A stretch of DNA of 64,000 nucleotides from Escherichia phage YJin-2024a: sequence record PP534475.1; one strand, written 5' to 3'. The position numbers and the translations under genes are program-made. Below are positions 3 through 42,195 of the stretch, piece by piece (position 1 is the first letter of the stretch; every line of letters starts with the position of its first letter). The notes below the pieces were generated by a model. It searched no databases and had not been told where the DNA came from. It saw nothing but the letters and a program-made list of their open reading frames with translations.

Positions 3-90
3 TGGTGGGGAAAGATGGAGTCGAACCACCCGAGTCGCAATGACAACTGATTTACAGTCAGCTCTGCTACCACTTACAGAATATTTCCCC
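3..90 (-). tRNA. tRNA-Tyr (anticodon GTA), class II with long variable arm
   Basis: Reverse complement folds with acceptor GGGGAAA/TTTCCCC, anticodon stem GCTGA/TCAGT, loop CTGTAAA, T-arm GGTGG-TTCGACT-CCATC, encoded CCA; resembles E. coli tRNA-Tyr from memory. Confidence 0.7.
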
Positions 91-221
91 ATATTTAGAA
101 GTATTCAAAAAATTCTAATTTAAACACTTTTAAATATGTTTCCAAATTAGATAACTATTATACCAAGTTTTAAGGCACTGAGCAAGTCAAATTTTAAAGA
201 ACTTGCTCAGTGCTGTATTAG

Positions 222-497
222 TTAGTCGAACTTAGGAGCGACAGTTAAGGAGAACGGAAGTTCGAAAACTTCTTCGCCCTCATCACTAACAGTAATTACA
301 CGACCTTTAAGTTCAGACATTGAAATATCAATATCAGCTTTTGCATCTGGAGCCATGCCAGCTTCAACACATTTAGCTTTAATTTCCGGCAGAAGTTCTA
401 CATCGTAGAAATAAAGCCATTCAATCTCACCTTCCCAGCCTTCCCAGGATTTACAGATTGCACTTTCAATACCAGTTGCTATAACACGATTTTGCAT
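222..497 (-). CDS. hypothetical protein
   Basis: 91-aa ORF downstream of a T5-type early promoter (approx 505-540, minus strand). Confidence 0.45.
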   Translation of the reverse strand: MQNRVIATGIESAICKSWEGWEGEIEWLYFYDVELLPEIKAKCVEAGMAPDAKADIDISMSELKGRVITVSDEGEEVFELPFSLTVAPKFD

Positions 498-587
498 TCG
501 TTAACTCCTTCATCAATTTATATAACTATTATACCAGAAATTTAAAGCAAAAGGCAAGTACATTTTTAAAAATTCTGTTTGGAGGAG

Positions 588-794
588 CTAAACTCCAGAT
601 TCTTCAGCCAAGTCTAGACTAATAAGAGATATAGCCATAATTGCCGCTCCATGTTCTTTTTCTCCAGTCTCTTTAGCTAGAGTTATAATGTCAAGAAATT
701 GCTTATGAAAATCTGCAACCTCTTGAGTTATACCTGCCTCAGCAATCATACCTTTAAGCATGAAACGTTGTGCGGTAATTTCAGGATTAGCCAT
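588..794 (-). CDS. hypothetical protein
   Basis: 68-aa ORF; start overlaps stop of upstream small ORF (ATGGCTAA). Confidence 0.45.
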   Translation of the reverse strand: MANPEITAQRFMLKGMIAEAGITQEVADFHKQFLDIITLAKETGEKEHGAAIMAISLISLDLAEESGV

Positions 795-954
795 GTTGTT
801 TCTCCAGTTTCATCTTTAATAGTCTACAAATAAAATCAATGTCTTCATCCGTGCCTAGATCTCTATCTTCAAGAGTTGCCTTGAAGTTTTTAGTCAATTC
901 CATAAGGATGACTTCCCTAGAACGACGTGTTGGCGGAGGTGGATGTCTATACAT
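787..954 (-). CDS. small Pro-rich hypothetical protein (55 aa)
   Basis: ORF below track threshold; stop overlaps the next start, suggesting translational coupling. Confidence 0.3.
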   Translation of the reverse strand: MYRHPPPPTRRSREVILMELTKNFKATLEDRDLGTDEDIDFICRLLKMKLEKQHG

Positions 955-969
955 CTTATTTCCTTAATT

Positions 970-1046
970 TGGTAGGGGTGGTGGGATTCGAACCCACAAA
1001 ACCTGAATTTTAAGTCCAGTACCTATGCCAATTCGATTACACCCCC
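970..1046 (-). tRNA. tRNA, probable anticodon TAA (identity uncertain)
   Basis: Acceptor GGGGGTG/CACCCCT, anticodon stem CTGGA/TTCAG with loop CTTAAAA, T-arm GTGGG-TTCGAAT-CCCAC, encoded CCA; D-stem pairs poorly and variable arm is short for Leu. Confidence 0.5.
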
Positions 1047-1147
1047 GTGTAATCAGTTTATTAGTTGATACATATTATAGCCTAGTGAAAATCCTACTAC
1101 TAGTCCCACAAACCAACCAATATAATAATCTTTTAGTTTCACAGGTA

Positions 1148-1333
1148 TTATCCTCGTTCAATATCTAGGGAAATACCACAGTTAGGATTAATACCTGTAC
1201 CACTGCAATTTGGGCAAACCCAGATATTGCAAAAAGTATCTCCTGCTTCTGCATCAGAACTTTCACCAATTCCCCTACACTCAGGGCAGACACATTCTTC
1301 TAGCTCTTGCTTGAGTTCTTGAAACTTAGACAT
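1148..1333 (-). CDS. small Cys-rich zinc-ribbon protein
   Basis: 61 aa with CPEC..CNIWVCPNC..C spacing typical of a zinc ribbon. Confidence 0.45.
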   Translation of the reverse strand: MSKFQELKQELEECVCPECRGIGESSDAEAGDTFCNIWVCPNCSGTGINPNCGISLDIERG

Positions 1334-1341
1334 ATAGTCTC

Positions 1342-1743
1342 CTAATTAAGTTTTTCAAAACGACCTAGAGAATCTCTAGTCATCTTATTTAAGATTTTTC
1401 CCATATTCTGCTTTCTTGTGAATAATTCTAGGTTAGGTAAAGCATTATTAGACTTATCATCATCTTTGTGCTCTATTTCATAGCCTTCCGGTATTTCACC
1501 GTTGAAAGCCATCCATACGAGTCTGTGCACATATTCATTTTTACCTAGTCCCTTATTGCAAATTTTCACCTGAAAATATCCAGATTTACCATTGCAACGT
1601 GGAGATAATACCTTTCCTTTTATAGTTCTAGTGTACTCGCTATATTGATTTCGTTGTGTTATTATTCTATCCTTAGTTTCTATTGTACCATTTAAGTGTA
1701 CAATTAAAATAACACCAAAGTACTCAAATTCAACCTTTTCCAT
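1342..1743 (-). CDS. HNH homing endonuclease
   Basis: HRLVW...IEHKDDDKSNNALPNLELFTRKQN matches the HNH motif; sits inside the tRNA cluster. Confidence 0.6.
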   Translation of the reverse strand: MEKVEFEYFGVILIVHLNGTIETKDRIITQRNQYSEYTRTIKGKVLSPRCNGKSGYFQVKICNKGLGKNEYVHRLVWMAFNGEIPEGYEIEHKDDDKSNNALPNLELFTRKQNMGKILNKMTRDSLGRFEKLN

Positions 1744-1757
1744 ACGTAATACCTAAT

Positions 1758-1832
1758 TGGTGGGTCGGAGGAGAATCTAACTCCTACTCATTAGCTTATG
1801 AGGCCACCGCTTTAACTTTAAGCTACCGACCC
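1758..1832 (-). tRNA. tRNA-like RNA with non-canonical anticodon arm
   Basis: Good acceptor GGGTCGG/CCGACCC, D-arm GCTT-AAAGTTA-AAGC, T-arm AGGAG-TTAGATT-CTCCT and CCA, but the only stable stem in the anticodon region (CTCAT/ATGAG) encloses a 6-nt loop. Confidence 0.4.
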
Positions 1833-1838
1833 TATGTT

Positions 1839-1932
1839 TGGAGGAAGATGCCAGACTCGAACTGGCACACCGTGTTTCCACAGTTACTGGCTGTTTAGCA
1901 AACAGCTCCCTTACCTTTAGGGTTAATCTTCC
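1839..1932 (-). tRNA. tRNA-Ser (anticodon GCT), class II
   Basis: Acceptor GGAAGAT/ATCTTCC, anticodon stem GCTGT/ACAGC with loop TTGCTAA, long variable arm, T-arm GCCAG-TTCGAGT-CTGGC. Confidence 0.65.
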
Positions 1933-1953
1933 AAATTTATAAGATATATTATA

Positions 1954-2466
1954 TTAGAAATTTAGCTTCATAGCAAGAAAATTTTTCAAGTTTTCGGTAG
2001 ACATCTCATCCACATCTATAGGAGAAACAAAGCCGTTTAATTTTCTAGCAAATTTTTCACCTGCAGGGTCATTATCCCCGACAGCTACCAATTTAAAAGG
2101 TAGTAATTTCAGTTGCTTTAATAACGCAACTGCCTTAAATACAGATTCAGCAATCAATACTACTTTTTCATCTCCATTGAGAGTTTCTAGTCCCCATACA
2201 CACTGGGTAGTAGAATGAGTAAAGTATTTAGCTTCAAAGGGGCACTTACCATGACCTTTTGGAGCAGAAGGATTATAAGTTTGATAGCCCCTCAACATCC
2301 CAGAGAAGTCATATAACGGGACTGTTAGCCATCCTTCCGGACTTAACCAGCAATGATATTTATCTGTATCAAATCCTCTAGATAAGAGGTGCTGTGTTAG
2401 CTCATCAACATTCATATTTGGTTCCTCTCTCAAATTTATAGATATATTATACAGAGAATTTAGCAT
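1954..2466 (-). CDS. hypothetical protein with Toprim-like motifs
   Basis: VVLIAESVFKA ... VAVGDNDPAGEKFARKL resembles the Toprim E and DxD signature. Confidence 0.4.
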   Translation of the reverse strand: MLNSLYNISINLREEPNMNVDELTQHLLSRGFDTDKYHCWLSPEGWLTVPLYDFSGMLRGYQTYNPSAPKGHGKCPFEAKYFTHSTTQCVWGLETLNGDEKVVLIAESVFKAVALLKQLKLLPFKLVAVGDNDPAGEKFARKLNGFVSPIDVDEMSTENLKNFLAMKLNF

Positions 2467-2590
2467 TCAAGCAATCAAATTTTTTAACTTTTTAGAGAAA
2501 AATCATAGGGCACTTAAGGATAGCAGATAAGTGGTGAGGACCAAAATTTGTGACCCCACTAAAAATCCGGGGGTAATTTTTAAAGACCCC

Positions 2591-2619
2591 TTGACATTTT
2601 CGCTGGGGTAGTGTAAAGT
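2591..2619 (+). promoter_or_regulatory. sigma70-type promoter TTGACA-17-TAAAGT
   Basis: Consensus -35, 17-nt spacer, near-consensus -10; AGGAGG RBS 8 nt before ATG at 2682. Confidence 0.6.
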
Positions 2620-2681
2620 ATATGTTATGGATGAGTGATCAAAGAGACACACATTTTCTATATACTAGGAGGTGTCAAAAA

Positions 2682-3674
2682 ATGACAGAAGAAGTAGCTA
2701 AGAGTCCTGAGACCGTCGCTAGCGTTGCAGCAGAACTGCACCGTCACGAGGAATCAGATAAGAAAAAGTGGGAGAAGGTCAGAGCCTACGAAGAGAAACA
2801 TCGTGAACACGATGAAGATGATGAAGAAGATGACGATGATGAGTATTGTCATAAATATGGAAAACGTAAAATGCAAGAACCAGTAAACGTATTCACTAGT
2901 GGCTTCCCTGGCCTAATGGGTGGTTACCCAGCAAACGCAGGTGCTTTCGGTGGTGAAGGTATGGGACTATTCGGAGCTATCCTAATCGGTGCTCTATTAA
3001 CAGGCGGATTCGGTGGTTTCGGTGGATTCGGTGGACGTGGTGTAGTTGGTGAAGGTACCGCAGTTGATGCAGTACTTCAGAACCAAGATACCGCTAGTAT
3101 TCTAGCAGCTATTAACACTACTCGTACAGAGGCTAACCAGGGTACTGGAGCTGTTTTAAGCGCAGTTAATAATGGTTTTAGCCAGACATCCCAAAACCAG
3201 AGCCGTGATACTCAGTCTGTACTAACTACGATCTATGGTACAGGTGCTAATCTGTCTAATCAGATCTGCCAGGAAACTCGCAACGTTATTCAGGGTCAGT
3301 TCGATCTTTCTCGCCAGATTGATCAAGCTTTCGCAGCTAATCAGATAGCTCGTGCACAAGATAAGTTTGATTCTGCACAGATCGCTTTCCAGCAGACTTT
3401 ACAAACTAATAACCAGTTTGCCGCTGTTCAGGCTCAGATGTGTGCTAACCAGAACTCTCTGGAACGTCAGATCGCTGAATGTTGCTGTGAACTTCAGACT
3501 GCGATTGCTGGTGTAACTACTGCGCGTATCCAGGATGAGTTAGACGCGTGTCGTCTACGTGAAGCAATCGCTGCGGGTAGCGGTGCTAACGGTCAGGTAA
3601 TTAATCAAATCGCTTTAAGTCTTGGTGCTATCACTCAGACTCTGGCTGGTCTGCAGGCTAAACTGCCGGCTTAA
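2682..3674 (+). CDS. membrane protein: acidic N-terminus, glycine-zipper segment, Gln/Asn/Thr-rich Cys-containing C-terminus
   Basis: Start moved to ATG 2682 because of the RBS; GGFGGFGGFGG hydrophobic Gly-zipper; DEDDEEDDDDE acidic tract; no recognisable family. Confidence 0.6.
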   Translation: MTEEVAKSPETVASVAAELHRHEESDKKKWEKVRAYEEKHREHDEDDEEDDDDEYCHKYGKRKMQEPVNVFTSGFPGLMGGYPANAGAFGGEGMGLFGAILIGALLTGGFGGFGGFGGRGVVGEGTAVDAVLQNQDTASILAAINTTRTEANQGTGAVLSAVNNGFSQTSQNQSRDTQSVLTTIYGTGANLSNQICQETRNVIQGQFDLSRQIDQAFAANQIARAQDKFDSAQIAFQQTLQTNNQFAAVQAQMCANQNSLERQIAECCCELQTAIAGVTTARIQDELDACRLREAIAAGSGANGQVINQIALSLGAITQTLAGLQAKLPA

Positions 3675-3695
3675 TATTAAGGGGAGGAGCCCATT

Positions 3696-4112
3696 ATGAG
3701 TAAATATGGTTTTGTAAATAACGGACTTAATCAAAGTATGGGCTCCCAGCAGCCCGTTCCGGGTCTGGATAACCCCTACTTACAACAGTTGCAACAGCGT
3801 TTAGCAGAAGCGCAACAGATGCAGCAACAACTCCAGCAAAACCCTGGAAGTGTAAGTCCTATGCAAATGATGCAGCAAATGAGCGGGCAGTCGCAAATGC
3901 CTCAACAAATGCAGCAACAGATGCCGCAGCAGCAAGTTCAGCAACAAACCCAACAACCGCAGGTTTCTGCGGAGGGACAGGCAGTACTAGCCCTTTTCGA
4001 AGACTTCGCAAAGACAGAGGATGGGAAACAGCTTGTATCACTTATGGGTAAGTTTAATAGCTTCTGCCAAAGCCAAGTTGCAAAAGCTCAAAATGGTGGT
4101 AATAACTCCTAA
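3696..4112 (+). CDS. Gln-rich low-complexity protein
   Basis: 138 aa with PQQMQQQMPQQQVQQQTQQPQ tract; GGAGG RBS upstream. Confidence 0.55.
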   Translation: MSKYGFVNNGLNQSMGSQQPVPGLDNPYLQQLQQRLAEAQQMQQQLQQNPGSVSPMQMMQQMSGQSQMPQQMQQQMPQQQVQQQTQQPQVSAEGQAVLALFEDFAKTEDGKQLVSLMGKFNSFCQSQVAKAQNGGNNS

Positions 4113-4121
4113 GGAGAAATT

Positions 4122-4316
4122 ATGTGTTGCAGAAAATCTGTTTCGTGCTGCCCAATGCCTGTAGCACGTTGTTGCTCTCCAGCAATGTTTACGCAAATAC
4201 CGGCGTTCAATCCGTTTGCCTTTAAGCCTACTCTTATCCTGCCCCCTAGAGTAGATTTTCAGTCAAGATTGGCCTCCCGTATGGGTGGTTGCTGTACACC
4301 GAGAGTGTGGTTCTAA
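4122..4316 (+). CDS. small Cys-rich hypothetical protein
   Basis: 64 aa with several CC pairs; last ORF before the terminator; may not be coding. Confidence 0.3.
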   Translation: MCCRKSVSCCPMPVARCCSPAMFTQIPAFNPFAFKPTLILPPRVDFQSRLASRMGGCCTPRVWF

Positions 4317-4329
4317 ACCAAAAACAAAA

Positions 4330-4362
4330 GCCCCTGCCGAAAGGTAAGGGGCTTTTTCTTTT
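4330..4362 (+). terminator. intrinsic terminator
   Basis: GCCCCT...AGGGGC hairpin with inner GAAA loop followed by TTTTTCTTTT. Confidence 0.7.
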
Positions 4363-4365
4363 GCC

Positions 4366-4408
4366 TTAAATACAGAAAAGCCCTGCGCTCTCCAGGAAAC
4401 GCAGGGCT
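4366..4408 (-). terminator. intrinsic terminator for the convergent SPFH gene
   Basis: 8-bp GC-rich hairpin GCCCTGCG/CGCAGGGC followed on the minus strand by TTTTCTGTATTT. Confidence 0.65.
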
Positions 4409-4432
4409 TACTTCAGATGTTACATGCGGGTA

Positions 4433-5380
4433 TTATTTATTACGCATATCCATAATCATTTGGCCATCGTAACCAGTTCCCACTACTGTTTGCGGTACAC
4501 CACCTTGGTATTTCTGAGCACGAATCATTTCGACTTCCAGTTGTTTCCAACGAATCATCTCAGGAGTAATGGTACGTTGCAGTGCGGCGTTAGCTTCAGC
4601 TTCTTTCTTAGCTGCATACAGTTTAGCATCTGCATCACGTTCGTTAGCAATAGCTTGGTTATTACGAGCTTCGCGATCTGCTTCTGCTTGTTTAACCTTC
4701 TGCTGTGCTTCTTGTTCAACACGAGCCAACTCAGCTTTTGCAGCATTAACTTGCTCTTCACGAACTTTGGTATTCTGTACCTGTTCCATGATTACTGGAG
4801 GCAGAGTAATATCCTGAAGGAATACCTGCTTAACTGTGTAACCATATGGGCGTGCATACTCTTCAACTTCTTGTTGAATTGCAGTTTGCAATTGAGCCTG
4901 AATTTTAGCATCAAACAAATCTTGTGCTTTAGGTACAGACTTACCAAACTCACGAATAGTAGACAGTAATTTTTCAGTTACATACTTGTCTAGCGCCTGA
5001 TCCTGAGTACCTGCGTTAATGCGGTTAATCGGTGCCTTAGAACCATCAAACTGCAACATAACAGTCAGGTCAACAGTGGATTTAAACTTATCCTGACTAG
5101 GAACCTGAAGTTTATCTAATTTTAGAGCAATATCTTTAGTACTAAAAGTATCGAAAGAAGCAAAAGGATTTACAATATGAAAGCCGGGTAATACTGGGCT
5201 AGGGTCAACTTTACCCAGGAAAGTCTGGGTTTTAACAGTACCGTCTTGAACAACAGTATAGGAGTTAAGGGCCAGAACTAAACCTACCAAACCAACTGCA
5301 GCACCAATACCCCAACGTTTGATATTACGCATCAATTTTTGCTCATAAGTCAGTTCTTTAGTGTTTTTAGTAGCAAACAT
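4433..5380 (-). CDS. SPFH/band-7 (prohibitin/HflKC-like) membrane protein
   Basis: N-terminal TM helix, SPFH-like core, long Ala/Glu/Gln-rich coiled coil (AKAELARVEQEAQQKVKQAEADREARNNQ). Confidence 0.65.
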   Translation of the reverse strand: MFATKNTKELTYEQKLMRNIKRWGIGAAVGLVGLVLALNSYTVVQDGTVKTQTFLGKVDPSPVLPGFHIVNPFASFDTFSTKDIALKLDKLQVPSQDKFKSTVDLTVMLQFDGSKAPINRINAGTQDQALDKYVTEKLLSTIREFGKSVPKAQDLFDAKIQAQLQTAIQQEVEEYARPYGYTVKQVFLQDITLPPVIMEQVQNTKVREEQVNAAKAELARVEQEAQQKVKQAEADREARNNQAIANERDADAKLYAAKKEAEANAALQRTITPEMIRWKQLEVEMIRAQKYQGGVPQTVVGTGYDGQMIMDMRNK

Positions 5381-5414
5381 ATATTTCCTTTGTTTTAGTT
5401 ACAGTTAATAAAAT

Positions 5415-5489
5415 TGGCCGAGGTGACAGGATTCGAACCTGCATAAAGGAATTTAGAAGACTCCTGCCTCTCCCTTAGACTACACCCCG
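5415..5489 (-). tRNA. tRNA-Arg (anticodon TCT)
   Basis: Acceptor CGGGGTG/CACCTCG, D-arm GTCT-AAGGGAG-AGGC, anticodon stem GGAGT/ATTCC with loop CTTCTAA, T-arm GCAGG-TTCGAAT-CCTGT, CCA. Confidence 0.7.
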
Positions 5490-10438: not shown

Positions 10439-10954
10439 TTACTTCGCTTTACGCTTGCGAGCTGGTTTAGCAGATTTACGAGCAGAATCACCAGTGAACT
10501 TAATGCCTACACCATAACACAGAGCACGAACATTATCTTTACTATACTCTACGCCAAAGATATTTGGCTTAACAGAGCCAAACTGTCCACGAGTATCACG
10601 CAATACATCTGCTGTTGGTTTACGCTTCTGGTTAACTGCCTTCTCATAGTCTTTCATAGACATACCATTACGAGAGAACAATTCAGCCCCAGCGTTGAAG
10701 CTCAGGGAAACTGGGACAGATTTGTGGCCGTAATTTTCTACATACATAACCATTTTGTAGGATTTACGAGTAGCATTTTTAGCCTTAGGCTTCTGACGAA
10801 TCGGAGCCGGATTATTCAGTGCTTGAGCAGCCTGAGCATCGGTAGGATGCTTACGCAGGTGGCGTTCCAGACGAGCTTTGCGATTAGCCTCAGTCTTCGG
10901 GAAAGTTTTAACTGCCGGAGCTGCTTGAGTTTTTGCGTTTTTCTGCTTAGCCAT
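10439..10954 (-). CDS. Lys-rich basic protein, possible nucleic-acid binding
   Basis: Start moved to MAKQKN because of upstream AAGGAAAA RBS; both termini Lys/Arg-rich. Confidence 0.45.
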   Translation of the reverse strand: MAKQKNAKTQAAPAVKTFPKTEANRKARLERHLRKHPTDAQAAQALNNPAPIRQKPKAKNATRKSYKMVMYVENYGHKSVPVSLSFNAGAELFSRNGMSMKDYEKAVNQKRKPTADVLRDTRGQFGSVKPNIFGVEYSKDNVRALCYGVGIKFTGDSARKSAKPARKRKAK

Positions 10955-11030
10955 TATTTGTTTTCCTTTTTTGTTTATCAATTTATGAAGTATATTATAC
11001 GAGAATTTGAAGCGTTTAGCAAATGAATTT

Positions 11031-11480
11031 TTAATTTATTAACTGTAAGCTTCTTTTAATTTCAGACCTTACCTGCATCAAAAGAACTCCTAAAGTATTA
11101 TCCCCGATGCCTCGGCAAACACCCCAATATGTATCTCCCCAGGTATTTCCTTCGATCAAAGTTGCATTTTTTGTTGCTAACAGTTTGTCTCTCAAATCAG
11201 GAATTGCAAACTTTAACCGTAAAAGCTCTAGCATTACATCATCTTTTACCTTATCCCAGTCAGAGCGCAGAGTTAATTTACGTCCTCTACGTTTGGCAAC
11301 TCCTGCGTTTAGGGAGCGTAGTACATGGGCTACATTATCTTTTTGGTCTGATTTCATAGCCTGAAAAGCATGTTCTACAGTATCAGCATGCCATATTTCA
11401 TTTAGATATTCGAAAGTAATTGGTGATAAATAAAAGTTTGATAAGAAACTATAAGTACCTTTAAATTCAGTAATCTTCAT
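11031..11480 (-). CDS. NADAR (YbiA-like) domain protein
   Basis: LSNFY, EHAFQAMK and GNTWGDTYWGVCRGIGDNTLGVLLMQVR align with E. coli YbiA (FSNF, EHYFQAQK, ENDAYWGDGGHGKGKNRLGYLLMELR). Confidence 0.75.
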   Translation of the reverse strand: MKITEFKGTYSFLSNFYLSPITFEYLNEIWHADTVEHAFQAMKSDQKDNVAHVLRSLNAGVAKRRGRKLTLRSDWDKVKDDVMLELLRLKFAIPDLRDKLLATKNATLIEGNTWGDTYWGVCRGIGDNTLGVLLMQVRSEIKRSLQLIN

Positions 11481-11761
11481 TTTTTACGCCCCGCATCTTT
11501 AGCCTCCTCGGCGGTATAGATATACTGATAAGCCCCTTTGGAGTAGGCTGGAGCAGTACACATTTTCTTACGCTCAATCTCTTCTTGAGCTTTTCTTTCG
11601 CGTTCCGCTAATTCTTCGTCCAGATAAACTAAACGTTGTTCTGGAGGAGGTGGAAGACGTGTTTCTGGCTCACCAATATTAGCCTTTCTTATTTGACGAG
11701 GCGATTGTGCACGTTTTCTCAATGGTTTAAATCCTAATGAATTTGAGTTATAAATCCGCAT
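11477..11761 (-). CDS. hypothetical protein
   Basis: 94-aa ORF overlapping the NADAR start by 4 nt. Confidence 0.4.
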   Translation of the reverse strand: MRIYNSNSLGFKPLRKRAQSPRQIRKANIGEPETRLPPPPEQRLVYLDEELAERERKAQEEIERKKMCTAPAYSKGAYQYIYTAEEAKDAGRKK

Positions 11762-11837
11762 AAAGCCCTCCTCACTTTCAATACGAATATTATACTAAAT
11801 TAGAGGGCTTTAAGCAAGAAAATTTTTAATTTATTTA

Positions 11838-12326
11838 TCACATCTCAGCCATTTCAGCTTCAGTAATAACTGTATTACACAATGCATCTACAGCTTCATT
11901 ACCACTAATACCAGAATGCCCTTTAACCTTAATAAAGGTAGGATTAGTATTATGAAAGTTGATATACTGCTGTGTTAATTTAAATGCTTCCTGCCAAAGT
12001 TCTAGATTAAGAGGAACTTCACCATCTGCTTTCTTCCAGCCTTTCCTTTGCCAAGAAAACATCCAACTTTCCATGCCATTTTTGCAATAAGCAGAGTCAG
12101 TATAGATAGCAATTGGTCTATTATCTTTTTTAACAGACCAACGTAGAGCTTCTACAATAGCTGTGAGTTCCATCTCATTATTTGTAGTTTTAGGATTATA
12201 ACCAGATTTAGAACCCAAACGATCGTCGTTATCATTATAGACAATAAAACCCCAAGCACCTGGACCTGGGTTAGACTTACAAGCACCATCTGTGTAAATG
12301 TGGAAAACCGACATTATACCTCCCAA
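11838..12326 (-). CDS. rnhA: ribonuclease H
   Basis: YTDGAC..NPGPGAWG, NEMELTAIVEAL, IYTDSAY, KVKGHSGISGNEAVDAL. Confidence 0.85.
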   Translation of the reverse strand: MGGIMSVFHIYTDGACKSNPGPGAWGFIVYNDNDDRLGSKSGYNPKTTNNEMELTAIVEALRWSVKKDNRPIAIYTDSAYCKNGMESWMFSWQRKGWKKADGEVPLNLELWQEAFKLTQQYINFHNTNPTFIKVKGHSGISGNEAVDALCNTVITEAEMAEM

Positions 12327-12595
12327 CTAATTTTAAGACCCATGTCCACAAAGGCAGCTTCTCGGTAATATTGAGAGATATGATACCCCTTATCCGATAA
12401 GGTTTTTAGTACCGATTTAGCTGCTCCTGGCATTTCTCTAGGATTATATAGCCACCTAGCGTAAGGATTATCTCGAATAATTATTTCTGTATTTCCAGAC
12501 TTAGCAGCTTCTACAATCTTTTCTTCTATAAACTTTAGAAATGCGGGTACTTCTGTTAATCCTGCAAGTTCTTGAGCTTCTTTGGCTGAAATCAC
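12314..12595 (-). CDS. hypothetical protein
   Basis: 93-aa ORF overlapping the rnh start. Confidence 0.4.
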   Translation of the reverse strand: MISAKEAQELAGLTEVPAFLKFIEEKIVEAAKSGNTEIIIRDNPYARWLYNPREMPGAAKSVLKTLSDKGYHISQYYREAAFVDMGLKISWEV

Positions 12596-12688
12596 TATAT
12601 ACCTCCAATTTATAAAATATATTATATTTAAATTTCACTAAATAAGCAAATGAAATTTAAATATAATAGCCCCGAAGGGCTATTTGAG

Positions 12689-13042
12689 CTAAATTATAAT
12701 TAAGATTATGAGAGCATAGGTTAAGTAATGGAGTAACTGATCAAATCCTAAAGCTATCCAAAACCTGGAATCACTTATATCGTATTTACAGCATTGTGCT
12801 TTCCAGTAATCTATGATAAAGTGTAGAATTAATTCCATTATAGCTAAAGTTATAGCCATTCCTAGTGATGTGAACATAGTAAGAATTATAAAGGTTAGTC
12901 CAGCATGTACTAGAGAATGGGTTAGTAATGGAAGTTTCCACCCTATTTTGTGGGTCTTCCTTAACATGTATGGAGTTTGGAGTGGATAATCAGCCATAAA
13001 ATGTTTCAGGAAGAATACAACAAATAATAATATTGTCAACAT
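12689..13042 (-). CDS. small integral membrane protein
   Basis: 117 aa, three or four hydrophobic helices. Confidence 0.45.
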   Translation of the reverse strand: MLTILLFVVFFLKHFMADYPLQTPYMLRKTHKIGWKLPLLTHSLVHAGLTFIILTMFTSLGMAITLAIMELILHFIIDYWKAQCCKYDISDSRFWIALGFDQLLHYLTYALIILIII

Positions 13043-19458: not shown

Positions 19459-20130
19459 ATGGTAAGAAAGAGAATAACTACAGAAGATGTGAACTTAGCA
19501 CTTGCTCCTAGAGGAATAGTTATGCTAAGCACGTATATATCAGCTAAATCCAACGCTATATTTAAGTGCTCTAATGGGCATAGTTGGGAGGCTAGAGTAG
19601 ATAATGTAAAAGGTGGTAGAGGTTGCCCTTATTGTGCTAGCCGTACTTTGGATCTTAAAGAAGTAAATGAATCTTTAGCTGCCCGTGGAATAAAGATGGA
19701 AGGTAAATACATCAATTCCAAGAGTAAAATCATGTTTAGCTGTGAGAATGATCATAGGTGGGAGTCTACACTTGATAGTGTTAGGAATCATAATTCTGGC
19801 TGTCCTATATGTTTATTAGAGAAGGATAATTACCCTACTAACGTATATATTTTAGTAAGTAATATGGGAACCAAAATAGGGGTATCTAGCAGAACTAAAG
19901 ATAGACTCAGAGATATTAAAACTTCTTCTAACATACATGATTTAAAAATATTTAAGGAGTATAGCTTTTCAGATAGATCAAAAGCTATGCGTATTGAGAA
20001 AGAAACCCATTTACAGTTTAAGGAATATAATTGTCAATATAAAGATTTTGATGGTGCTACAGAATTTTTTAGTATTGAGCCAGAAGTAGTAGCAAGGTTT
20101 ATTGAGGAAATAATTAATGAACAAAGATGA
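19459..20130 (+). CDS. T5orf172/GIY-YIG-like protein with tandem N-terminal zinc ribbons (homing-endonuclease-like)
   Basis: Two KC.NGH.WE...CP.C repeats; NVYILVSNMGTKIGVSSRTKDRLRD resembles the T5orf172 core. Confidence 0.55.
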   Translation: MVRKRITTEDVNLALAPRGIVMLSTYISAKSNAIFKCSNGHSWEARVDNVKGGRGCPYCASRTLDLKEVNESLAARGIKMEGKYINSKSKIMFSCENDHRWESTLDSVRNHNSGCPICLLEKDNYPTNVYILVSNMGTKIGVSSRTKDRLRDIKTSSNIHDLKIFKEYSFSDRSKAMRIEKETHLQFKEYNCQYKDFDGATEFFSIEPEVVARFIEEIINEQR

Positions 20131-21964
20131 ATTGATTAGAAATTGTAAGGAAATTATTGAGGGATCTGCCAATGAAGAGTTACTTTTTAATAACGCGAAC
20201 AAACCGAGTGAACGTTTCCCTACACAAAGGGATATGCTTGCAGGTGAATTGAGTAAGTATCTGATTCTAGAAGAAATGCCAATTCAGATTCGAAATGCTC
20301 ATATGATTGGGGATATTCATTTCCATGATGCTGATTATGCTGCATTAGGCATGACTAACTGTTGTCTGGTAGCTCTGGAAGATATGCTGAAGAATGGTAT
20401 GAAGGTTGGTAATGCTGAAATTAGCACTCCAAACTCTATCACTACTGCGGCGGCTATTACTGCTCAGATTATCACTCAGGTTAGCTCTCATCAGTATGGT
20501 GGTACTTCTGTAGATCGCCTTGATGAAGTATTAGCCCCTTATGTTCGTAAATCCTATGACAAAAATCATGCGTTTGCAAAACGTTGGACTAAGGATGAAG
20601 CCAAAGCATCAGTAATGGCTACGGAGATGACTGAAAAGGAAGTCTATGATGCCTGTCAGGGTCTAGAGTATGAAATCAATACGATGTTCAACTCTAACGG
20701 TCAGAGTCCATTTATTACCTTTGGTTTTGGTCTAGGAACTTCTTGGGAAGCACGTCTAGTACAGAAAGCAATACTGAAAGTACGCATGGATGGTTTAGGT
20801 ATCAATAAACGTACAGCTATCTTCCCGAAACTGGTATTTGTACTTCGTGATGGCGTAAATATGAAACCAGGAGATGTTAATTATGACATCAAGAAGTTAG
20901 CTATGAAATGTACTGCTGAACGTATGTATCCAGATTATATCAGCTATGACAAGGTTGTAGAAGTTACTGGAGACTACAAAGTTTCTATGGGCTGTCGTTC
21001 ATTCCTAGCTGCTACAGAAGATGGTGAAACTGCCGGTCGTAATAACTTAGGTGTTGTTTCTGTAAACTTGCCTAGAATTGCTATCGAAGCTGAGGGAAAT
21101 ATTGACCTATTCTTTGATTTGCTTGAGCTACGTGTGGATACAGCATTAAAAGCGTTGGAATGGAGAGTTGATCGCTTAAAATACATTCAAGCTAAAGCTG
21201 CACCTATCCTCTATATGTCAGGAGCCTTTGGGTTACGCTTGGGGCCTGATGAATATGTATTCGATCATTTCTATAACCGTGCTTCTGTATCTCTAGGGTA
21301 TATTGGTTGCCATGAAATGCTACAGTTCATGTTTGGCAAAGATGTAGATACAATGTCCGAGACCTGCATCAAGTTTGTTCAGCGTGTATTGCAGTACATG
21401 CGGGATAGAGTAGATCAGAAGAAGGAAGAAACTAAATTAGGTTATAGCCTGTATGCTACACCATCAGAATCCCTATGTGACCGTTTTTGTCGTCTAGACC
21501 GTGAATATTTCCCGGAGCATGAAGATATTTTATCCAAAGGATACTACACTAACTCTCACCACCTTGATGTGGAACGTAAAGTTGCTCCTAACGTGAAATT
21601 TGATTATGAATCTAACTTTACTCCGATTGCTTCTGGTGGGTGTATTTCCTATGTAGAACTACCGGATATGAAACGATTCCCAGATGCACTGGAATGGGTT
21701 ATTAATTATGCTGCTAGTAAGGTTCATTACTTCGGTATTAATACTCCAGTGGATTCTTGTGGTAAATGTGGATTCTTAGGTGAAACAATAGCATCCGAAG
21801 ATGGATTTAAGTGCCCTATCTGTGGTAATCATGACCCCGAAACTCTTGAAGTAACTCGTCGAGTTTGTGGGTATCTTGGAAATCCGGGTGCTCGTCCATT
21901 TAACCCTGGCAAACAGCACGAGGTGATGGGCAGAGTGAAGCATCAGGATATTCGAGCTAAGTAA
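20117..21964 (+). CDS. nrdD: anaerobic ribonucleoside-triphosphate reductase (class III)
   Basis: C-terminal glycyl-radical motif RVCGYLG preceded by CGKCG..CPICG zinc site, 615 aa. Confidence 0.9.
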   Translation: MNKDELIRNCKEIIEGSANEELLFNNANKPSERFPTQRDMLAGELSKYLILEEMPIQIRNAHMIGDIHFHDADYAALGMTNCCLVALEDMLKNGMKVGNAEISTPNSITTAAAITAQIITQVSSHQYGGTSVDRLDEVLAPYVRKSYDKNHAFAKRWTKDEAKASVMATEMTEKEVYDACQGLEYEINTMFNSNGQSPFITFGFGLGTSWEARLVQKAILKVRMDGLGINKRTAIFPKLVFVLRDGVNMKPGDVNYDIKKLAMKCTAERMYPDYISYDKVVEVTGDYKVSMGCRSFLAATEDGETAGRNNLGVVSVNLPRIAIEAEGNIDLFFDLLELRVDTALKALEWRVDRLKYIQAKAAPILYMSGAFGLRLGPDEYVFDHFYNRASVSLGYIGCHEMLQFMFGKDVDTMSETCIKFVQRVLQYMRDRVDQKKEETKLGYSLYATPSESLCDRFCRLDREYFPEHEDILSKGYYTNSHHLDVERKVAPNVKFDYESNFTPIASGGCISYVELPDMKRFPDALEWVINYAASKVHYFGINTPVDSCGKCGFLGETIASEDGFKCPICGNHDPETLEVTRRVCGYLGNPGARPFNPGKQHEVMGRVKHQDIRAK

Positions 21965-24879: not shown

Positions 24880-24973
24880 TGATTTTTATTAGCTGAACTC
24901 TGATTACCGAGTCATTTTGGCTCGGATTATTACATAATCTTTCCAGTTAATTGACAGTATGAATAAATTGTCA

Positions 24974-25002
24974 TTGACAAATTGGATGGATTATGTAATA
25001 AT
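24974..25002 (+). promoter_or_regulatory. promoter TTGACA-17-AATAAT with TG extension
   Basis: Two TTGACA hexamers (24951, 24974) upstream of the HNH gene. Confidence 0.45.
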
Positions 25003-25021
25003 ATATGTATTGGAGGTAAAG

Positions 25022-25474
25022 ATGTCGCTCACACAACAAGAACTTTTAGATAATTTCCGATATGAAGATGGAAAATTATTTAGAACTACAGGAAGAAATG
25101 CAGGCAAGGAATGTTGTGTTTCAACGGGAAATGGTTATTACCGTATTTCTCTAGGGAGTAGAACTATGCTCCGACACAGAGCTATCTTCTTAATGCATCA
25201 TGGATACTTACCTGATTTGGTAGATCATGAGAACACTATAAAAGGTGATGATCGTATTGAAAATCTTAGGGAGCAGACAGTATCTGGTAATCTAAGAAAT
25301 ATCAAATATAAGAAAGGAATGCATGTTTACCCTTCTGGTAGTAAGAACTGGCAAGTAGTATTTACTATTAACCGTAAACGGATAGTTAAAGGAACATATG
25401 ACAACTATGAGGTTGCATGTTCTATGGCCAAGATGTTTAGAGGCCAATTATATGGTAGGGAATCAATCCAGTAA
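25022..25474 (+). CDS. HNH homing endonuclease
   Basis: HRAIFLMHHGYLPDLVDHENTIKGDDRIENLR is an HNH motif; start moved to MSLTQQ (RBS GGAGG). Confidence 0.6.
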   Translation: MSLTQQELLDNFRYEDGKLFRTTGRNAGKECCVSTGNGYYRISLGSRTMLRHRAIFLMHHGYLPDLVDHENTIKGDDRIENLREQTVSGNLRNIKYKKGMHVYPSGSKNWQVVFTINRKRIVKGTYDNYEVACSMAKMFRGQLYGRESIQ

Positions 25475-41429: not shown

Positions 41430-42195
41430 GTCTTGGGGCGAAACTACTGGCGGTTCTAACGATAAAATCGAATTCCTGAAGTTCAACAACGGTATCACTC
41501 GTGTTCGTATCGTTTCTGGTGTTCTTCCACGTTATGTCTATTGGCTGACTAATAAAGAGGGTAACGCAGCTCCTTTCGAATGTCTCCGTTTTAACCGTGA
41601 CAAAGAGAGCTTTGTTCGTGGTAAAGCTGATCCAGTTCATGAGATGGGCTTCTTCGAGAAAGAGCTGGATAAAGAGGGTAATCGTGTTCCGCTGAAACCG
41701 AAGAAAAACTATATCGCTTTTGTTATCGACCGTTCTGATAACAAACTGAAAGTAATGGAAGTCAAGGCTACTATTCTGAAAGGCATCCAGTCTATCATGA
41801 AGCAGTTGAATCTGGCAACTCCGTTTGATATTGATATTTCTATCGAGAAAAAAGGTAAAGGTTTCGATACTGAGTATGATGTACAGCAGATTGCTGCTAT
41901 GCAGTTCCAGATTAAGCTGCAAGATCCTAACAGTGCGGAATCTAAGCAATATGCTGCGGATGTAGATCTGATCGGTGAAGCTATGTGTGACGAAGATGGC
42001 GACATCATTAAGTTCGAAAAAGTTCCTTCTCTGGAACAAACCTATCCGGTTCCTACCTATGAAGAGCAGAAAGAAGCAATTCAAGCCTTCATGGAGGGTC
42101 GTGAGAATAAAGATGATGATGCCAAATCTGGTAATAGCAATGTAGGCTCCCAGAAAGGTATTGACACAGAAGCTGCAAGCGATCTGGACGACTAA
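41422..42195 (+). CDS. gp32-like ssDNA-binding protein with acidic C-terminal tail
   Basis: RVRIVSGVLPR...NAAPFECLRF resembles T4 gp32 AVIRFLPSK...QAPFAIL; C-terminus ...EAASDLDD; high-expression codon usage. Confidence 0.5.
   Translation: MAKSWGETTGGSNDKIEFLKFNNGITRVRIVSGVLPRYVYWLTNKEGNAAPFECLRFNRDKESFVRGKADPVHEMGFFEKELDKEGNRVPLKPKKNYIAFVIDRSDNKLKVMEVKATILKGIQSIMKQLNLATPFDIDISIEKKGKGFDTEYDVQQIAAMQFQIKLQDPNSAESKQYAADVDLIGEAMCDEDGDIIKFEKVPSLEQTYPVPTYEEQKEAIQAFMEGRENKDDDAKSGNSNVGSQKGIDTEAASDLDD

Follow-up and report, generated by a model that had tools for sequence, protein, structure and literature searches.

A stretch of 64,000 nucleotides from Escherichia phage YJin-2024a (sequence record PP534475.1, referred to hereafter as the window) carries on its minus strand an open reading frame whose product an earlier note, made from the letters alone, had read as a NADAR-domain protein. 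The note held it to be a candidate reverser of DNA ADP-ribosylation and a plausible counter-defence against DarTG-like systems, and named nucleotide salvage as the alternative. The locus raises the question of what such a protein would remove, and from which host system it would protect the phage.

Family, fold and active site of the NADAR protein

The ORF is intact with exactly the ends given below; plus-strand ORFs within it (11107..11364 and 11129..11359) were taken as shadows of its frame.

11031..11480, minus strand: NADAR gene, adfN-type, orthologue of AdfN-Bas32 (bas32_0066); assigned from the ORF, Pfam, sequence identity, cloning primers and an AlphaFold2 (AF2) model

The encoded protein (149 aa, start ATG, stop TAA) was examined with the NADAR/DUF1768 profile search that the earlier note had proposed as a check. 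Residues 9–142 match positions 9–163 of the 163 in Pfam PF08719 (NADAR, DUF1768) (E 5.9e-22; 79.1 bits, the gathering threshold being 35.1), and the protein also matches PHROG 1017 (E 3.8e-44). Two solved NADAR structures are recognized by sequence, those of Escherichia coli YbiA (PDB 2b3w, E 2.4e-15) and of the Phytophthora nicotianae protein PnNADAR (PDB 8bau, E 5e-7). The AF2 model, built with 45 homologues as input, has a mean pLDDT of 96.4 and a pTM of 0.91, and its comparison with the PDB using Foldseek returns the same two proteins, YbiA at a TM-score of 0.82 and ADP-ribose-bound PnNADAR at 0.77, followed by a weak third match to the DarG1-type Geobacter NADAR (PDB 8bat, TM 0.52, 19% identity); no non-NADAR fold was matched by the model in this PDB search at E ≤ 0.001. 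Membership of the NADAR superfamily is therefore far beyond chance, and the agreement with YbiA/NADAR motifs that the earlier note had reported is borne out by profile, sequence and fold alike.

Five residues of the window protein (E36, K43, E110, D116 and W119) are invariant in the alignment of 45 homologues. E36 and K43 align with E43 and K50 of PnNADAR, and E110, D116 and W119 with its E125, D130 and W133; the five positions also align with YbiA and T4 gp30.3. The roles of these positions have been described on the basis of the ADP-ribose-bound PnNADAR structure and of mutants of the E. coli C7 DarG1 NADAR (Schuller et al, PMC11543638). The distal ribose is held by a glutamate (Pn E43) together with a second acidic residue (Pn E125), and the pyrophosphate by a lysine (Pn K50) with W133 and D130; the C7 counterparts of Pn E43 and K50 are E88 and K95 (PMC11543638). 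E36 and K43 of the window protein also occupy the aligned positions of E36 and K43 in T4 AdfN, mutants of which give weaker rescue.

Orthology to AdfN-Bas32 and its published function

The window protein is equal in length to, and identical at 146 of 149 positions with, bas32_0066 (QXV80247.1) of Escherichia phage IrisVonRoten, which is BASEL phage Bas32 according to its locus tags. The three differences from bas32_0066 (T9A, N49D and K104E) are conservative, and none of them falls in a column that is invariant or nearly so among the 45 aligned sequences; the corresponding protein of Salmonella phage SaI_NFG_5581 is 100% identical to that of the window. By tblastn, the Bas32 genome encodes NADAR at a single place. 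The published AdfN-Bas32 was matched to its gene through the cloning primers printed in the preprint of Johannesman et al: the gene-specific parts of the primers for “NADAR-Bas32” match bas32_0066 exactly, which identifies this gene as that of AdfN-Bas32, and at the ends of the window ORF one primer mismatches at 1 position and the other at 0. By these comparisons, the window protein is the orthologue of AdfN-Bas32.

The function of the window gene is accordingly one already known, an anti-DarTG1 role having been published in 2025 (Johannesman et al, Nat Commun 2025, PMC11825919). In that paper, the NADAR proteins of Bas32 and Bas33 are identical and are named AdfN-Bas32; the protein neutralizes DarT1 toxicity in uninfected E. 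coli, and its ectopic expression allows RB69, T5 and Bas25 to form plaques again on bacteria with DarTG1, whereas T5 is not rescued when the host carries DarTG2, which modifies thymidine (PMC11825919). The counter-defence by de-ADP-ribosylation that had been proposed thus stands for guanine and DarTG1, whereas its extension to “DarTG-like systems” in general does not, DarTG2 being unaffected. To this extent, a reading of raw sequence can recognize a real counter-defence gene.

The anti-DarT1 activity (PMC11825919) was shown by ectopic expression of the 98%-identical orthologue, i.e., with a sequence other than that of the window protein. A literature search on the behavior of Bas32 on DarTG1 hosts found only the AdfN paper and its preprint, in the accessible text of which the Bas32 gene is expressed ectopically; the search turned up no gene knockout reported for Bas32 or another phage of the T5-like group, such that the evidence for this clade is ectopic expression as far as that text goes, and it found no in vitro assay of a Bas32-type protein, data of this kind having been found only for T4 AdfN, DarG1, PnNADAR and YbiA. 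In the tree of the AdfN paper (PMC11825919), AdfN-Bas32 groups close to two archaeal NADARs, at a distance from the YbiA-like proteins, although the window protein keeps the glutamate of the YbiA subfamily as E110.

Public records label the orthologues variously as “swarming motility protein YbiA”, “GTP cyclohydrolase II”, “DUF1768 protein” or “hypothetical”; among the records matched, that of phage WP85 alone reads “antitoxin-like enzyme”. The mislabeled copies in T5-like genomes should read AdfN. A neighboring ORF of 216 bp is also often mislabeled in public records, as “tail tape measure protein”.

An accessory cassette in the T5-like early region

The 5 kb surrounding the gene are 97–99% identical to many Salmonella and Escherichia T5-like phages (Demerecviridae, Markadamsvirinae). 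Gene order is that of the T5 early region (nrdA, nrdB, frd, thy, rnh, T5.090, T5.089), and the earlier note was therefore correct, by synteny, to place the gene in an “early region”, with counterparts of the early T5 genes rnh, thy, frd and nrdAB around it. AdfN-Bas32 is encoded at the like locus, between a T5.090 homologue and a P-H207-type promoter in a Tequintavirus-like genome; it differs in coming from a separate phage isolate, the best DNA matches of the window being phage Stokescottia and Salmonella phage SaI_NFG_5581. The features of the locus, in addition to the NADAR gene, are as follows.

11477..11761, minus strand: upstream ORF of 94 aa, T5.090 homologue, PHROG 4593 (ORF call, PHROG and T5 alignment)
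11789..11817, minus strand: promoter-like TTGCTT-17 nt-TATAAT, upstream of the two-gene unit (by eye and from T5 annotation)
10994..11022, minus strand: P-H207-like early promoter, TTGCTA-17-TATAAT, identical to T5 P-H 207 (promoter scan)
11033..11522, no strand assigned: presence/absence cassette relative to T5 (blastn against T5; alignment of window, T5 and Bas32)

The ATG of the NADAR gene and the TGA of the 94-aa ORF upstream share nucleotides (ATGA), such that co-transcription and translational coupling of the two genes are probable; the 94-aa ORF itself has a strong Shine–Dalgarno sequence (GAGGAGG) ahead of its ATG. The site at 11789..11817 falls below the threshold of a consensus promoter scan and corresponds in place to a promoter that the T5 record annotates between rnh and T5.090; from this position and the T5 annotation, we infer that it would function as a promoter. 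Past the other end of the gene, the −35 box of the P-H207-like promoter starts 8 nt beyond the NADAR stop codon. This element forms the downstream edge of the NADAR cassette, and is the predicted promoter of the next gene, DUF7022 (10439..10981). The segment 10980–11033 in which it lies is also 91% identical to a second T5 promoter, P 16-17 (T5 41554–41628), which indicates that T5-type early promoters form a repeated sequence family; such repeats could act as recombination sites for cassette exchange.

Comparison with T5 delimits the cassette to 490 bp (11033..11522), made up of the NADAR ORF and the final ~14 codons of the upstream ORF, which have diverged. T5 has 46 bp in its place, with flanks that align cleanly, and neither the T5 annotation, blastn nor the three-way alignment reveals NADAR at this T5 locus. 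The cassette was found at ≥ 95% identity in 95 records of the phage collection, and the uninterrupted T5-type junction (the empty site) in 347, placing the cassette in about one in five T5-like genomes. The ~95 cassette-positive and ~347 empty-site genomes amount to a natural experiment on DarTG1 resistance in an otherwise near-isogenic background.

A more distant allele is found in Salmonella phage vB_SenS_UTK0009 (Epseptimavirus; L005:2489-2938), where a 60%-identical NADAR lies between rnh and the T5.090 homologue, one gene further upstream than the window copy, which follows the T5.090 homologue. This difference in position means that the locus has been hit more than once or rearranged, and suggests independent acquisition or local rearrangement as the origin of the UTK0009 allele. 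Patchy spread, together with a 60%-identical allele at another site, suggests that the cassette may be a mobile anti-defence module exchanged among the Markadamsvirinae. Further relatives, at 55–61% identity, are present in phage-like metagenomic contigs. In one of these (57.8 kb; L008:5001-5826), a 61%-identical NADAR is directly followed by a YAcAr (SLOG-type) gene and lies downstream of genes for QueC, PTPS and GTP cyclohydrolase I (the 7-deazaguanine pathway), a layout that echoes the NADAR–SLOG association of Iyer et al (2022).

Other parts of the window also depart from or parallel T5. Between thyA and rnh (12314–13042, minus strand) lie a 93-aa ORF (PHROG 5321, for which no Pfam match was found) and a 117-aa DUF3307 membrane protein (PHROG 2470, “moron/host takeover”); the thy–rnh interval of T5 contains just a promoter, marking this as another variable accessory slot, and one that probably explains the two-piece matches of 93% coverage to T5-like genomes. 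At 19459–20127 (plus strand), a homing-endonuclease-like gene with a T5orf172/MUG113 domain and a DUF4379 zinc finger lies upstream of, and overlaps the start of, a 615-aa ORF (20117..21964) in the place of T5 nrdD; T5 has only a promoter at this spot. A second homing-endonuclease-like gene, of the HNH_3 type, occupies 24959–25471 (plus strand). The segment 22741–24876 (plus strand) encodes a Sir2-family protein (271 aa), then a HAD domain of “Swiss Army Knife” RNA-repair proteins and two DUF7415 proteins; from the Sir2 gene onwards, the order of the ORFs parallels T5.102–T5.107, and the segment gives this phage a further module linked to NAD+/ADP-ribose. The tail end of a T5-type tRNA cluster, with five tRNA genes (Tyr, Leu, Met, Ser and Arg-TCT), occupies 3–5489 (minus strand).

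Proposed role and comparison with known NADAR systems

The product of the window gene is very probably an AdfN-Bas32-type NADAR ADP-ribosylglycohydrolase, orphan and antitoxin-like, that frees phage replication from DarTG1; this reading is based here on the family and fold of the protein, its conserved active-site residues and its near-identity to a tested protein. In the proposed mechanism, host DarT1 would place ADP-ribose on guanine N2 of phage DNA, and the window protein, probably expressed early in infection, its gene being second in a short unit of two, would hydrolyze the N-glycosidic bond between ADP-ribose and guanine N2; removal of the modification (G-ADPr) would then lift the DarTG1 replication block. 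The chemistry is predicted by homology to PnNADAR, DarG1 and AdfN-T4, and early timing and protection would be expected of the gene in its native phage. As regards orphan status, the neighbors of the gene encode RNase H, a PHROG 4593 protein, DUF7022 and an exonuclease-like protein, and among them there is no DarT or other ADP-ribosyltransferase gene adjoining NADAR. T5, which is without the NADAR gene, is strongly restricted by DarTG1 in a published report, and the two observations are consistent with one another.

A possible if rather doubtful extension is that Bas32-type AdfN has a wider range, taking in cytidine-ADPr and both RNA and DNA, with the cassette serving as a mobile module that guards against more than DarTG1. 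The window protein is YbiA-like and has Glu110 where T4 AdfN has His, on which grounds it may share the wider substrate range of the YbiA type; were this so, the cassette would protect T5-like phages from ADP-ribosylating defences beyond DarTG1. A rival reading, in which the protein is a broad ADP-ribose eraser whose main natural targets are C-ADPr, RNA G-ADPr or soluble ADPr-derived immune signals (DarT1 reversal being one activity), we regard as unlikely. Such breadth would agree with the removal of cytidine-ADPr from DNA and RNA by YbiA-type NADARs, unlike T4 AdfN and DarG1 (PMC12945103), given that the window protein resembles YbiA in sequence and active site, and with the SLOG-type YAcAr gene adjoining the 61%-identical homologue; the phenotypes measured for AdfN-Bas32 are, however, specific to DarT1/DarTG1, with DarTG2 unaffected (PMC11825919).

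It is very unlikely that the protein is instead a housekeeping or metabolic N-glycosidase like YbiA, clearing reactive intermediates of the riboflavin pathway, or some other ribosylated small molecule, so as to assist its nucleotide-metabolism neighbors (rnh, thy, frd and nrdAB): although YbiA is its closest solved relative (E 2.4e-15, 41% identity, TM 0.82) and it has the YbiA-subfamily glutamate (E110), its score of 65.3 bits against TIGR02464, the model for the YbiA riboflavin-intermediate N-glycosidase, falls below the curated cut-off of 73.7, no riboflavin genes lie nearby, the 98%-identical AdfN-Bas32 neutralizes DarT1 in cells where E. coli YbiA cannot, and the gene is dispensable, being absent from ~347 T5-like genomes including T5 itself, which fits accessory counter-defence better than core metabolism. 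Assignment to the TIGR02464 family was rejected on the score and on this difference in cells. The nucleotide-salvage alternative of the earlier note drew no support beyond the same neighboring genes.

Returning to the anti-DarTG1 reading, we note that E. coli YbiA cleaves G-ADPr in vitro, yet does not rescue cells from DarT1; sequence alone would hence not have predicted activity in cells, and the residues examined here do not explain the in-cell effectiveness of the phage protein.

Set beside other NADAR proteins, the window protein was found to be distinct from several established groups. The DS-32 anti-phage NADAR (NF053876) was rejected (44.2 bits against a cut-off of 240), and PADLOC gave only a weak, sub-threshold match (PDC-M42C, 28 bits). 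E. coli YbiA (2b3w) is the nearest solved relative, at 37–41% identity and the TM-score of 0.82; both proteins have an N-terminal β-hairpin and a glutamate at position 110, and the YbiA gene belongs to a LexA-controlled chromosomal operon, unlike the phage gene.

AdfN-T4 (gp30.3), the founding phage anti-DarT factor, shares the NADAR fold, the aligned E36/K43 pair and the proposed removal of G-ADPr. Membership of its clade was rejected: a BLASTP E-value of 1.1 against T4 AdfN, and Glu110 in place of the T4 histidine, set the window protein in a separate NADAR clade, as the AdfN paper (PMC11825919) also states. The two types differ in behavior as well, in that rescue by AdfN-T4 is complete only when the infecting phage is T-even, and AdfN-T4 does not neutralize DarT1 in uninfected cells, whereas the Bas32 type does.

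The DarG1-type antitoxins (Geobacter lovleyi, 8bat; E. coli C7) belong to the same superfamily and reverse the same reaction. Assignment of the window protein to this type was rejected, there being no DarT neighbor and a TM-score of 0.52 to 8bat, and the protein consisting of the 149-aa core only; the missing part, a basic N-terminal extension, is thought to bind ssDNA in DarG1-type NADARs, and its absence counts against the proposed role. The active sites are also arranged differently, E. coli C7 DarG1 using a catalytic Asp171 and the window protein having its Glu110 arrangement. What DarG1 and the AdfN-type proteins have in common is that they do not bind the toxin, and so follow the logic of a type IV antitoxin.
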